10,585 bases of DNA from UHGV virus genome UHGV-1718691; one strand, given 5' to 3'. Shown in pieces: positions 1-10,585 of this stretch (positions are counted from its first letter, which is position 1; each line of letters begins with the position of its first letter). A program made the translations under genes and the position numbers. The notes beneath the pieces are model-generated. The model was not told the origin of the DNA. It searched no databases and worked only from the letters and a program-made list of their open reading frames with translations. Source of the DNA: a virus.

Positions 1-24
1 CTCCGGCCCTAAGACATCAATCAT
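1..24 (-). CDS. Possible 5' end of the next downstream gene (partial, first 8 codons MIDVLGPE), running off the left edge
   Basis: ATG at 22-24 (minus) is preceded by GGAGA (29-33) with about 5-nt spacing and the frame stays open to the window edge. It lies about 75 nt downstream of the tail-needle stop. Too short to identify. Confidence 0.25.
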
Positions 25-36
25 CTGTTCTCCAAT

Positions 37-83
37 GACTAGTCTAAAAACTAGTATTAAGACTATCACTTATTTAAGTGATA
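37..83. repeat. Cluster of AT-rich inverted repeats in the spacer downstream of the tail-needle gene
   Basis: Seen directly: 8-bp palindrome GACTAGTC (37-44); inverted repeat TAGTCT (40-45) / AGACTA (60-65); inverted repeat TATCACTTA (64-72) / TAAGTGATA (75-83) with a 2-nt spacer. No U-tract follows on either strand, so not a classical terminator. Confidence 0.5.
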
Positions 84-99
84 TTGGTTGTCTGGAGAT

Positions 100-699
100 T
101 CAGGGGGCCAGTCTAGTGTATGACTGGTTAGCGTTGAATGAGCCAAGAAGTGGCGTACCTGTGGCTGCAGTCCATCCGGTATTTCTTGCTCCAACAACCT
201 GAATTCCATCAACTGAATATGATGTTTTTACATCCAGCGGTGACTCAAGAGACTGCAATTCGGTTACGGTTTTCGATACGTAATCACTCTTAATGCCAGA
301 GACATCGTTTTCTACGTCATCCAGTCTTTGGTCAACAGTGACCAGATGCGCCTGAATATCGATAACCTCATCCAGCAAGTAATCAACATCGCTACGCAGT
401 ACGACTATCTTCCCTTCGGCAGTTGTTAACCTGACCTCAAGTAGATTTATCGCTTTTGTGTTTGCGGTGATTCTTGCGTCGTGATCAGCCAGTTCGACAT
501 CCTGTTCATCGTTTTTCACCTGTGCATCGTAAGCGCCCTGACCAGCCTGATTTGCCTTCCCGGCAATTGCGCCGACATCAGCCCCCTGATTAATGACATA
601 CAACAGGTAAGACTGGCTGAAGATATTGCGTGGAAGGATTGATGTATCGAGCCGCGTCGCCTGCACAATAACAGGAGTGTTGAGATTCGAATCCGCCAT
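100..699 (-). CDS. 26: Tail needle (P22 gp26-like), 199 aa
   Basis: N-terminus [28 protein letters not shown]...[27 protein letters not shown] matches my recollection of the conserved N-terminal domain of P22 gp26; heptad-like coiled-coil segment follows. Start ATG overlaps the gp10 stop (TAATG). Stop TGA at 100-102. Shorter than P22 gp26 (about 233 aa, from memory). Confidence 0.85.
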
Positions 700-2117
700 T
701 ACTCAATCCTTATCTGAGCGCCAGAAAGAGTTACAGGTGACTTCGTGATAACGCGCAATTTGAAGCCAACATTTTTCCTGATTCGCCCGACACGCTTCCA
801 CAAAACGCGTTTGTCGTAAACGAACGGTTCATTCTGCTCAATCATCTGCTCACGACCATAATTTATGCCGTCAGTGGTTGCAGAGAGGAACAGGCGGTCG
901 GCGTACTGCGCAACTCCAGTTGACGATTCAACTTCAAGGTCGAAAACTCTGGCGTTATCCGCTTTGAACAACGGAGTAAACAGCAGGTGTTCCTGTTGCT
1001 TGTCGTACTGGCTGCTGATATCGAACTGCAATTTTCCTGTCATCGATTCAAGCTTATCGCCGCACGTTATCTGATTGCCTTCGTAAATGAAGTCGATAGC
1101 GCGGTACACATCGTCATACAGGCCTGTTTTCAGCACACACCATTGCGGACCATTGGCACTTGAAGATGCGTCGTACACCAGAACATGGCGCGGAAGGTGG
1201 ATAATCAGCAACTCATGCGCATCAAATCGCAGCGATTCCATCACGCCATCAGCCAGTTCATCAGCAGTGTAGGAACGAAGGATTTTCTCAATGCTCGCGC
1301 TGGCGATTGGTGATACCTGACCGGAGCCGATGATATACACAGACGGCGCACCTGTTGCCGGATTGCTGATGAACGCATACGAATCAGCAAACGGCGTTTT
1401 GCAGTAGGTTCCGGCGATTCCTTTTTGCACCATCAGCGATGGCTGTGCGACATACAAAGCGGCACCAACAGTGGTTGCACCTGTCAGGGAGAAATATTCA
1501 ATCGTTGATGAACCAAAGCATACGATGAAGTCTCGCCATGTTCCGATGCCGATGATGCCGTCAGGCTGCGATTCTGCGCGATATTGTGCGCTGTAGCGGT
1601 CAGGATGAGATTCGTCTTCAAGGTCAGTGATAAACCATGAATCAGTACCGTCTTTTGACCACGCATAACGCCCACGTAATCGCGTAATGTCGCGGACTGA
1701 GCCTAACTCATACTGCGTGAATCCGCTGTCTGTAGGCCAGTTTGAGACGGTTTTAACCGTACCATCATAGCGATACTCGACCAGTTGACCATTAACGCCT
1801 ACAGCCTGAGATGTTCGACCATGCGCCATTGATACGCGACCACTTCCGGCGACGTCACCGACTTCACTTTCTCCTTTGTACAGCTTACCACCACATACGC
1901 GATAAACAGCATTCTGCGCCATGTTGTACTCGACGCCCCGCGATACGCCGTTCACATCAGAACGTTTGGCAATGCCCGGGAATGAGCGAAGATATCCGCT
2001 GCTGTTCAGGATTTCTTTGGGTGTAGCCAACATATTCACTGGCAGATAGTCGATATAGTCGGCGTTTCGAAAGTCTTTGCCGACACCTTTCATAAGCGGA
2101 AGTTGCTGAATCGGCAT
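699..2117 (-). CDS. 10: Tail-hub / head-completion protein (P22 gp10-like), 472 aa
   Basis: 472-aa ORF, the same length I recall for P22 gp10, in the syntenic position between gp4-like and tail-needle genes. Start ATG 2115-2117 overlaps the gp4 stop (TAATG). No recognisable catalytic motif; call rests on synteny and length. Confidence 0.85.
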
Positions 2118-2617
2118 TATTCGCTCCCGTTATCGCAAGGTTCCTTTCGGTGGAAGTAATTCCAACCGTTCCACTTCGCCAACTGGTTACCACTACCAAC
2201 AGGCATACGGTTTGGATAACCGGACTTACATTTAGCGGCTTTTGCTCTGTCCATTGCAGACAGTTTGACGAGTCGCTCTTTCCCGTATCTGGCAGTGGTT
2301 ATAAGTTTTGCAGACGCTTCCAGCGCATAATCTGGAGCAATGCGGCAGGCAAGGTTGAAAATGACGGCATTTATAGCGTTATTTGATAATCCGTGCTCAT
2401 CTCCCGGATCTGGAGCGACATCTGCATCAGCAAAAATGTAGCCAACGTTGATACCAGGTGACACATCACCGCCAAGCCATTCAGCCATCATCATTTCAAG
2501 GTCGTTGACGCCATCTTCCATGGACTGAGGTTCGACATCGGTTAACGTGGCATTTGATGCCACACCGAGCTTACGTAATGCCGCAAGAACTAAATCACCC
2601 TTCGTTGTCAGGTTCAT
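2117..2617 (-). CDS. 4: Head-to-tail adaptor (P22 gp4-like), 166 aa from the internal ATG
   Basis: From ATG at 2615-2617 the product [33 protein letters not shown]... is 166 aa, matching remembered P22 gp4 in N-terminus and length. The frame is open upstream to 2731 (204 aa) but that extension overlaps the preceding ORF and has no counterpart in gp4. Confidence 0.85.
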
Positions 2618-2831
2618 CTGCTGCCGCCTTAGGTTTTCGACCAGGCTTTTTACGCTGTTTTTCTTCTGGCTCTGGCTCTGGCTCTGCAACGTCCTTAAGA
2701 AGGTCATCGGGATGTGCAAACCAACCAGCATCCAGATATTCCTGAATCTCTTCGGCTTTCACGATTTCAAAGTCGTAGCCAACGCCTTTCCACTTCTTCA
2801 TGTCGCCATGACGAAAGATCATGTGTGTCAT
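2595..2831 (-). CDS. Small hypothetical protein (78 aa) between coat and gp4
   Basis: ATG at 2829-2831 preceded by GGAG (2838-2841) with 6-nt spacing, located just downstream of the coat terminator. Product [78 protein letters not shown] has a low-complexity charged tail. 3' end overlaps the gp4 start by 23 nt. Confidence 0.5.
2666..2686. repeat. Hexanucleotide tandem repeat (CTGGCT) x3.5
   Basis: Seen directly: ctggct ctggct ctggct ctg at 2666-2686. On the minus strand this encodes the EPEPEPE stretch of the 78-aa ORF. Confidence 0.6.
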
Positions 2832-2875: not shown

Positions 2876-4171
2876 TCACGCAGTCTGGTTAGGCAGGCCA
2901 ACGCCAATTGCCTCTGGTCGTACAGCACATGCTGAATACCACACAGCAATACGGCACTTACCAGACAGAGTGTTGATATCACCCTGCGTTGCGAAGATGC
3001 CGTTAACACCAATGCCAGGAATGCTGAAGGAAGAAGTTTTCATGCCAGCAAACAGTTCATGGGTTACCGGGATCGGCTGAGACAGTAGGCGGATTGAGTC
3101 ATCAGCCCAGAACACGTTAGCGGTGGTTGTTGCCACGTTCAGAACGTTTACCGGAGTGGTATCAGCAAGAGAAGTGTTTACGTTAGCGTAAGCCTTCTCT
3201 TCTTTTGTCAGTGACGCGTCATCCAGTGCAATCGGTTTCGGCGTGATTTCGATGTGAGTACTATCGATCACACGGGTGATTGAGAAAGTTGCATCATCAG
3301 TCAGCACGTTCTTCGCCATCTGAGACAGGAATTTCACACCAGTGAAGCTGATTTTGTCGCCGCGCTTAAATCCGGTGGTGGAGGATACGGTCACCGTTGC
3401 AACACGGTTGTCGACGTTCTCTTTGTTACCATCGGTATCAAGGGTGTATGCCTGCGGCTTAAACTTCTGCGCACCAGACACAGTTACACCAGTAGCGGTT
3501 GACTTGGTAACTGCCGGAAGTTTCGGTGAGCGAAGAATTTCATCAAAGCCAGCAATCTGACGCTGAATAGTACCGTTGCGATACGCTTCTTCAGGAACGC
3601 GCCCGAAGATGTCACCATCTACCAGGTTGCGGCCTGCTTTACGGTAATCGTCAGGGTTCAGGAAGTAACTGATGCCCATATCGCGGTTTAGCTCACGGGA
3701 GAACATCAGGCGCTCTGCATCAGACACAAAATCCCAGCCAGACAGGCCAGTAGATGGACCAATTGCGCGGGTATCGTGAACAACAAGCGAGCCCATTTCA
3801 GTTGCCTGTTTGGCAATCGCTGACTCAATGTTATTCGCCAGTTTTTTGGCGGATGCCTGGATGCGGCGACGGTAAGAACGCTCATCACGCAGGTCATCTG
3901 CACGAAGCTCGAAGAAATCGTTATCCGGATCGCCCATGTTGCACTTCACGGAGAGTTCCAGAATCCCGGTTGCGTTGCCAGTTAAATCCCAGCCAGTCTG
4001 GGTTGGCGCTTCCTGCTCAACAGGCATCCACACGGTGTTGCTTGAACGCTGCATGGATTCTGCCGGAGGGGTGTATTTTGTCACTTTGGACGCCATTGGC
4101 GTCAGGTTCTGGACGGTTTCGATGATTTCATCCAGAGCATACGTGACTAGTTGACCTTCATTTAATGCCAT
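2876..4171 (-). CDS. 5: Major capsid (coat) protein, P22 gp5-like, 431 aa
   Basis: N-terminus [20 protein letters not shown] and C-terminus ...[30 protein letters not shown] match my recollection of P22 coat protein (about 430 aa), as does ...[12 protein letters not shown]...[10 protein letters not shown].... Start ATG overlaps scaffold stop (TAATG). Stop TGA at 2876-2878. Confidence 0.95.
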
Positions 4172-9713: not shown

Positions 9714-9906
9714 CTTTCAGTGGCTGCCAGTGTTATTTCCCCACTTACTGGCTTGGGTTGTTTCGTGGTACTGCCGTAACTGGTTGCCAAGAATAAATTC
9801 CGGTTTCATTATCAAGCCCACCCGTAGATGGGCTTTGTAATGGATAGCCGTTGCTCAGTTCTCGTAATGCTTTGATTTTTCCGATAACGCAGTTTTGCGT
9901 TTGCCA

Positions 9907-10428
9907 TCAGCACGCGATATCGAGAGTCAACTGCAGTTGCTCGCGCCAGTACTCAACATTTGCTTCAATAACCGGCTTATCCCATCGCCAGCGAGCCATC
10001 TCTCTTGCCCCATTGCTGGCTTTTGATTTCCGGTCATCGCGAATGCGACATGCTTGCTCATATTTCTGCTGCTCAGTCAGTTCACCGCGAAGCAGACTAT
10101 CAATGTGCAGGTCGCACCACACAGCAAAACGAGCATCACACCAACGGGCAAATGCAACTGAAAGTTTTGGATGTAGCCACGTACCACCACCCCTGTCCTT
10201 TCGTGCCTTGCTGGTTTTTACATACCTCGATTGTGAGGGATGTAAAATTTGAGATTCTTTCCCGGTCAACGCTTCGTCTAAAGCACGAACGTATTCAAGC
10301 GTTTCTGCCAAACGCATCCAGTTATCAATGCGTTTTCCAAATCTCTCAGCAACACCTGTGACGTTGATCCAACCATCAGTGTTGAAACTGACAATTTCAC
10401 CTTTGTAATTAAGTGGCACGATATTCAT
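9907..10428 (-). CDS. KilA-N domain protein (173 aa)
   Basis: N-terminal region ...GEIVSFNTDGWINVTGVAERFGKRIDNWMRLAETLEYVRAL fits the KilA-N/APSES-type DNA-binding consensus as I recall it (D-G-[YW]-[IV]-N-x-T...GK...W). ATG 10426-10428 with an AGGT Shine-Dalgarno-like sequence upstream; stop TGA 9907-9909. Confidence 0.65.
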   Translation of the reverse strand: MNIVPLNYKGEIVSFNTDGWINVTGVAERFGKRIDNWMRLAETLEYVRALDEALTGKESQILHPSQSRYVKTSKARKDRGGGTWLHPKLSVAFARWCDARFAVWCDLHIDSLLRGELTEQQKYEQACRIRDDRKSKASNGAREMARWRWDKPVIEANVEYWREQLQLTLDIAC

Positions 10429-10543
10429 AACGTTTACCTACCATTTGAAATGAACCTTTGCCGCATAGGAAACCAGCCCACCGAGGCTCGCCAGCACTAA
10501 CTGGTATCCTCAAAGGCCCATTCCAAAGGGGCAGGTTCGGTGT

Positions 10544-10568
10544 AAAAAACATGCGTTGCGGTACGCAT
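10544..10568 (-). terminator. Candidate weak intrinsic terminator upstream of the KilA-N gene
   Basis: Minus strand AUGCGU-ACCGCA-ACGCAU followed by G-UUUUUU (stem 10551-10556 / 10563-10568, U-tract 10544-10549). The stem is only 6 bp with 3 GC pairs. The window edge (10575-10585) reads GGGGCUUUUU on the minus strand, possibly the 3' half of a second, stronger terminator. Confidence 0.4.
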
Positions 10569-10585
10569 TTATTGCAAAAAGCCCC

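Follow-up and report, generated by a model that had tools for sequence, protein, structure and literature searches.

Late Genes and the Tail-Needle ORF

The window, that is the whole stretch of 10,585 nucleotides analyzed here from the virus genome UHGV-1718691, carries all its real genes on the minus strand, and together they make up the late (morphogenesis) operon of a P22-like phage. They encode a KilA-N protein (10428-9907), the small terminase (9227-8739), the large terminase (8761-7262), the portal (7261-5096), the scaffold (5082-4171), the coat (4171-2876), the gp4 adaptor (inside 2731-2117), gp10 (2117-699) and a tail needle. In a profile search the late genes (10.4 kb) were all intact ORFs with full-length family matches; the needle ORF is described separately below. 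From position 116 to about 9842 the window is 96-97 % identical at the DNA level to Escherichia coli Lederbergvirus phages such as APC_JM3.2 and IME10, and the order gp4, gp10, needle is common to the window, phage 611R6 and phage HK620.

Some further features of the operon were observed. The gp4 ORF (2117-2731, minus strand) has 204 aa as called, its family profile match begins at residue 39 and in relatives the protein is annotated with 166 aa, so that the true start is probably an internal ATG; a small hkbT-like ORF, of 78 aa in related contigs, overlaps gp4 upstream. The region at about 9843-10585, upstream of the terminase genes, is a mosaic boundary where the APC_JM3.2 and IME10 matches end (at about 9842) and where the KilA-N gene and its flanks are 97-98 % identical to Salmonella phage Emek and E. 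coli phage HK544. Here, in contrast to the junction in the needle gene described below, DNA of two phages has genuinely been joined by recombination. In the segment 116-2122, identity to 611R6 is 99.4 % for the needle plus the final 300 nt of gp10 but 96.7 % for the gp10-needle block as a whole, and upstream of gp10 no megablast match to 611R6 was obtained; this pattern points to another mosaic breakpoint, within gp10 or ahead of it. At the far edge of the window (10560-10585) the minus strand begins with GGGGCTTTTTGC, which looks like the tail of an intrinsic terminator cut by the edge; HK544 and Emek have an annotated terminator in the matching region.

The needle ORF spans positions 699 to 100 of the minus strand and encodes 199 aa, as had been noted in the original prediction. 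The 233 aa that it gave for the P22 needle are correct, and the needles of HK620 and 611R6 have this length too. Pfam gave no domain in the protein, and a match was obtained with PHROG 1219 ('tail needle protein', E = 1.9e-91), which is aligned over profile positions 1-195 of 233 only. Residues 1-195 are 100 % identical to the 233-aa needle of 611R6, and in the protein alignment only the last four residues, RLAP, deviate. The HK620 needle, whose structure is solved (PDB 5BU5, 233 aa), shows 90 % aa identity to the window needle overall and about 92 % over residues 1-195, with 38 residues missing at the end; 5BU5 and 2POH are the PDB entries that match the intact 611R6 form. The window needle thus has the N-terminal plug domain and the trimeric coiled-coil shaft homologous to gp26, as the PHROG 1219 match and the identity to 611R6 document, and lacks a complete C-terminal tip reaching residue 233. 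No other phage record contains the 199-aa form: all tblastn matches end at or before residue 198, mostly at 194-195.

A needle of the Sf6 type, with a TNF-like knob (Sf6 residues 140-282), was considered and rejected, since PHROG 1030 ('tail needle knob') was matched at positions 1-89 only, which represent the shared N-terminus, and the tblastn match to the Sf6 needle covers only residues 1-141.

The AT-Rich Region Downstream of the Needle ORF

The stop codon of the needle ORF (102-100) is separated from the following ATG (24-22) by 75 bp with 32 % GC, and between positions 37 and 83 the GC content falls to 25.5 %, compared to 47 % in the needle gene and 50 % in the whole window. This stretch contains three dyads: a perfect 9+9 palindrome, TATCACTTA-AA-TAAGTGATA, at 64-83; an imperfect 16-nt palindrome (88 %) at 40-65; and a 7-bp hairpin, ACUAGUU/GACUAGU, at 38-55. 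The latter two come from a repeat search and the minimum free energy fold. A GGAG at 33-30 precedes the ATG by six nt. The description given in the original prediction, a 75-bp AT-rich spacer with three dyads followed by a ribosome binding site and an ATG, is therefore exact for the minus strand, and so is its argument that the needle ORF does not end by a frameshift, because each of the three frames past its end stops within a few codons. In 611R6 and HK620 there is no intergenic spacer at all; gene 26 has 702 bp and its stop codon overlaps the ATG of gene 14 (TGATG).

The predicted RNA fold of window 115-20 is more stable than that of shuffled sequences (z = -3.1). A simple scan of window 1-300 for promoters and terminators gave neither a promoter-like nor a terminator-like site, and Rfam and tRNA scans of the whole window gave no match. 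A phage intergenic terminator or regulatory spacer was rejected on these grounds and on the lack of any spacer in related phages.

The Identity Break Coincides With the Left End of IS2

When window 1-1000 was compared with phage records by megablast, two disjoint sets of matches were obtained (query 885/886 corresponds to window 116/115, and query 886-1000 to window 115-1). The matches to the needle and gp10 (611R6 at 99.4 %, CUS-3, HK620, IME10 and others) end at window position 116 or 115, depending on the phage; the second set covers window 115-1 only and comes from unrelated phages, in which the matching features are annotated as IS2, InsC, InsA or 'insertion sequence 2 OrfA'. An identity to P22-like phages of 96-99 %, which extends along the whole window, thus ends abruptly at position 116, within the interval of about 100-130 in which such a break had been predicted, and close relatives do not share the 199-aa needle and the spacer with uniform identity, 611R6 having a 233-aa needle and no spacer. 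In a five-way DNA alignment the window tracks 611R6 and HK620 to ...CAGTCATACAC, ending CATACAC, then switches to TAGACTGGCCCCCTGAATCTCC... and runs as IS2 (TAGACTGGCCCCC...), in register with the IS2 copies in the int gene of SfX and in nleG of Stx2a_1447. Upstream, the flanks of these two copies are related neither to the needle nor to one another.

Positions 115 to 1 of the window correspond to IS2 nucleotides 1-115 on the minus strand (IS2 position n is window position 116-n). They are identical to annotated IS2 copies at 97-100 %, from their exact boundary, and reach 100 % over the 115 nt. Among the 5,426 complete E. coli genomes, 4,757 contain the same 115 nt, at 21,759 places altogether and at 3,775 of these on plasmids, with the annotation 'IS3-like element IS2 family transposase'; the sequence is thus multicopy and dispersed in unrelated contexts, on chromosomes and plasmids alike.

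Base for base, the window agrees with what has been published on the anatomy of IS2 at its left end (PMC3299598). The 42-bp left inverted repeat, IRL (TAGACTGGCCCCCTGAATCTCCAGACAACCAATATCACTTAA), with its outer cleavage domain and inner transposase-binding domain, occupies positions 74-115 and is identical to that of annotated copies from the first base. In IS2, residues 39-42 are TTAA, 43-48 are ATAAGT and 48-51 are TGAT, and residues 39-48 (TTAAATAAGT) are protected by OrfA or the transposase (PMC3299598). In window coordinates (minus strand throughout), TAAATAA, the repressor site of OrfA, lies at 76-70, at the centre of the 64-83 palindrome (IS2 nt 33-52), and the weak extended -10 promoter PIRL (TGATAGTCT) at 60-68, its TGAT at 68-65 (PMC3299598). 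The palindrome, the strongest of the three dyads, extends over the inner end of IRL, the OrfA site and the first bases of the promoter. The two remaining dyads, the 7-bp hairpin among them, overlap at 38-65 (IS2 51-78), in the orfA leader. The lack of a -35/-10 consensus promoter in the scan is expected, as PIRL is an extended -10 promoter. The possibility that the TATCAC...GTGATA palindrome is a lambdoid repressor operator was rejected, because the sequence belongs to IS2 and falls on the site for which protection by OrfA and transposase is published.

The ribosome binding site GGAG (33-30) and the codons from 24 to 1 are the start of IS2 orfA (insC/insA), cut by the edge of the window after eight codons, MIDVLGPE. 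The ATG at position 24 is IS2 nt 92, and the eight codons are identical to IS2 ORF1, which in the SfX IS2 record begins 91 nt inside the element, at the position equivalent to window 24. The full ORF1 of that copy contains the Pfam domain HTH_Tnp_1 (PF01527, 1.8e-19); the N-terminus alone lies in the window, and the related contig L005 extends the orfA match to codon 24. The new ribosome binding site and ATG of the original prediction are thus the start of orfA, and the 'spacer' ahead of them is the IS2 control region, consisting of the inner, transposase-bound part of IRL, the OrfA site, PIRL and the orfA leader.

Two further observations concern this control region. In the predicted fold of window 29-98 (minus strand, IS2 nt 18-87), IRL nt 18-22 (UCUCC) pair with the orfA Shine-Dalgarno sequence GGAGA (IS2 83-87). 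Both arms are expected on transcripts that read in from the needle gene, and the 5' arm would be absent from those started at PIRL; this modelled pairing fits a general strategy of insertion sequences, in which transposase translation is blocked on read-through from outside. The near-identity of IS2 copies leaves no covariation by which such a fold could be assessed. Furthermore, the IS2 copy in SfX int (L003:500-515) differs from window 70-76 in having TT instead of AA at the palindrome centre (CACTTATTTAAGTG vs CACTTAAATAAGTG), so that the central dinucleotide of the OrfA operator is exchanged for its complement with the arms unchanged.

The Needle Gene Is Truncated by the Insertion

The native part of tail-needle gene 26, of the HK620 (subtype A) P22 type, spans positions 116-699 and comprises codons 1-194 and the first two bases of codon 195. 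By codon arithmetic, IS2 nucleotide 1 supplies the T of codon 195 (ACT); reading on in frame through 16 nt of the inverted repeat, T AGA CTG GCC CCC TGA, adds RLAP and a stop codon, so that the 199-aa ORF at 100-699 is a chimera. Because residues 1-195 are identical to 611R6, RLAP and the stop come from the IS2 repeat, and the profile is matched over 1-195 of 233, the short length of the needle is due to truncation by insertion and not to a different tip. The original prediction that the distal tip is different or absent was right insofar as the tip is incomplete; it is no alternative or naturally shorter tip domain. Given the profile match at 1-195 of 233 and the 38 missing residues, the gene is a disrupted gene and not a full member of the P22-type gp26 family (HK620 subtype).

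Both comparison copies of IS2 have the ends TAGACTGG...AAATCCA between 5-bp duplications, GCCTG in SfX int and GGAGG in Stx2a_1447 nleG. From these two insertions, in which the duplications abut the IS2 ends, the 5-bp target site in the needle gene is predicted to be TACAC (116-120, minus strand). Taken together, window 1-130 almost certainly shows the left junction of an IS2 element (IS3 family) that has inserted into gene 26 of a prophage of the HK620-like P22 type (Lederbergvirus), carried by E. coli or a close relative.

Occurrence of the Junction

The exact 199-aa protein was found on five short-read contigs, from samples including ENA ERZ652471 and Logan SRR8090939. Two of the five were read (ERZ652471, which represents one contig common to two samples, and SRR8090939); each matches the window at 100 % and breaks off within IS2, one of them at IS2 nt 164. 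Breaking inside IS2 is the usual behavior of a repeat in short-read assemblies. The junction-bearing contigs, all 100 % identical, may come from one clone. The left junction (AACCAGTCATACAC|TAGACTGGCCCCCTG) had no match in the GTDB representative genomes, IMG/VR or the JGI metagenomes, and the 5,426 complete E. coli genomes lack it too, their coverage of window 1-1000 at any single place never exceeding 89 %. For the right junction, predicted as IRR + TACAC + GTCGGCACTAC, the GTDB representatives, IMG/VR (with a variable gap allowed) and the JGI metagenomes likewise gave no match. The junction looks like a private event in one lineage, and probably a recent one; the IS2 part of the window is 100 % identical to standard IS2 copies, and the 10.4 kb of intact late ORFs also suggest a recent event.

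Weighing Other Explanations

The original prediction considered that the spacer may mark a recombination junction, and this holds as far as there is a junction with a sharp break; the break is the left boundary of IS2 and not a phage-phage mosaic joint. It was also correct that the needle tip is a known mosaic region in this group, for which two tip types that are unrelated to each other, and 11 branches within the P22 type, have been documented (PMC3741392), and this mosaicism, together with the sharp break at 115/116, is what would speak for a natural needle variant with a shorter or different tip, followed by a regulatory spacer at a recombination junction between phages. The DNA past the break, however, is 100 % IS2 from the exact terminus of the element and not phage DNA, the RLAP tail of the ORF and its stop are encoded by the IS2 inverted repeat, a relative at 99.4 % DNA identity carries the full 233-aa needle and no spacer, and tblastn detected the 199-aa form in no other phage record; the chance that a natural variant is at hand is practically nil. 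An assembly artefact, that is a contig-end chimera of needle reads and reads from an IS2 copy elsewhere in the genome, would be compatible with the position of the IS2 part at the very edge of the window, with the end of every junction contig inside IS2 and with the absence of the junction from complete genomes, but IS2 is joined precisely by its first base, a signature that transposition leaves and a random chimera does not, and at least two other, independent assemblies (ERZ652471 and SRR8090939) show this junction as well, in one of them continued 164 nt into IS2. We consider such an artefact very improbable.

A less remote possibility, still an unlikely one, is that the IS2 junction is real and does not derive from a simple insertion, being instead the result of an IS2-mediated adjacent deletion or inversion or of IS2-IS2 recombination, by which the 3' end of gene 26 and the ejection-protein genes would have been removed or relocated, the window then marking where a prophage remnant ends. 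Prophages commonly decay through IS-mediated deletions, and the right junction with the expected TACAC duplication was found in no collection searched. The left junction, however, is also missing from the same collections, so that this negative carries little information, and the 10.4 kb of late genes, intact and with full-length family matches, rather suggest a recent event.

Predicted Consequences for the Prophage

IS2 integrated within codons 194-195 of gene 26, which normally has 233 codons, at the predicted target TACAC, and its orientation is that of the phage late operon. As a consequence of this orientation, needle translation runs into the IS2 left inverted repeat, and the product is the 199-aa protein without the last 38 residues of the needle, among them the distal tip's C-terminal helix. 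With a simple insertion as the preferred reading, the remainder of gene 26 would lie beyond the 1.3-kb element, with the duplicated TACAC; the right end would thus read IRR (...GGGGCAAATCCA), TACAC, GTCGGCACTACG... and then gene 14, and the right junction itself is predicted as ...GGAAATATAGGGGCAAATCCA-TACAC-(T/G)GTCGGCACTACGTACAC.

In the P22 needle, residues 141-233 constitute tip domains III and IV; a needle in which they are replaced by a foldon is viable, with tiny plaques, an about 10-fold worse particle/PFU ratio and slow K+ release and DNA delivery, and the needle trimer is less stable when its C-terminal domain is taken away (PMC3741392). The window needle resembles this engineered P22 needle, with the T4 foldon in place of domains III-IV (Leavitt et al., 2013, PMC3741392), in having lost the native tip, and differs in the smaller extent of the loss, 38 residues at the end, and in gaining no trimerisation domain in exchange. 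With the final 38 residues gone and no other trimeriser in their place, the tip should be crippled at the least, and the needle may be destabilised. With 1.3 kb of IS2 between gene 26 and the downstream genes 14, 7, 20 and 16 there would be no stop-start overlap, and the expression of these four genes would probably be impaired by the loss of the TGATG overlap and by polarity of the element. IS2 is classically polar. Since both the tip and downstream gene expression would be affected, the prophage is probably defective or crippled.

That the IS2-bearing prophage is still inducible, producing virions with a needle short of 38 residues while the late antiterminator reads through IS2, seems improbable. 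If it were true, this phage would provide a natural test of the dispensability of the needle tip and would be a packaged vehicle spreading IS2 between hosts.

Relation to Known Systems and Meaning

IS2 is a 1,331-bp member of the IS3 family, with orfA and orfB joined by a -1 frameshift, which transposes by copy-out-paste-in via a minicircle; the visible 115 nt are identical to it, with no difference within the visible part. As in SfX int::IS2 (U82084) and Stx2a_1447 nleG::IS2 (AP012536), the window shows an interrupted gene followed by TAGACTGGCCCCC... and by orfA starting 91 nt inside the element; in those two insertions the target genes are others, and both ends and the 5-bp duplication are visible. 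Compared to gp26 of HK620 and vB_EcoP-611R6 (subtype A; PDB 5BU5), residues 1-195 and the gene order are alike, whereas residues 196-233 are absent, RLAP stands in their place and gene 14 does not come next.

The locus represents the entry of a well-known mobile element into HK620-type gp26, a gene that is itself well characterised; this is routine prophage damage of a kind already known, and no biological question hangs on this particular IS2 junction. Its meaning lies in annotation: the 199-aa ORF is to be described as an IS2-disrupted needle gene (pseudogene) and not as a new class of short-tip needles, and the 'spacer' is to be masked as mobile-element DNA. In a mosaic phage region, a 'junction' at a contig edge should be compared with the ends of insertion sequences before recombination is invoked, and the prophage of the window is to be flagged as probably defective.
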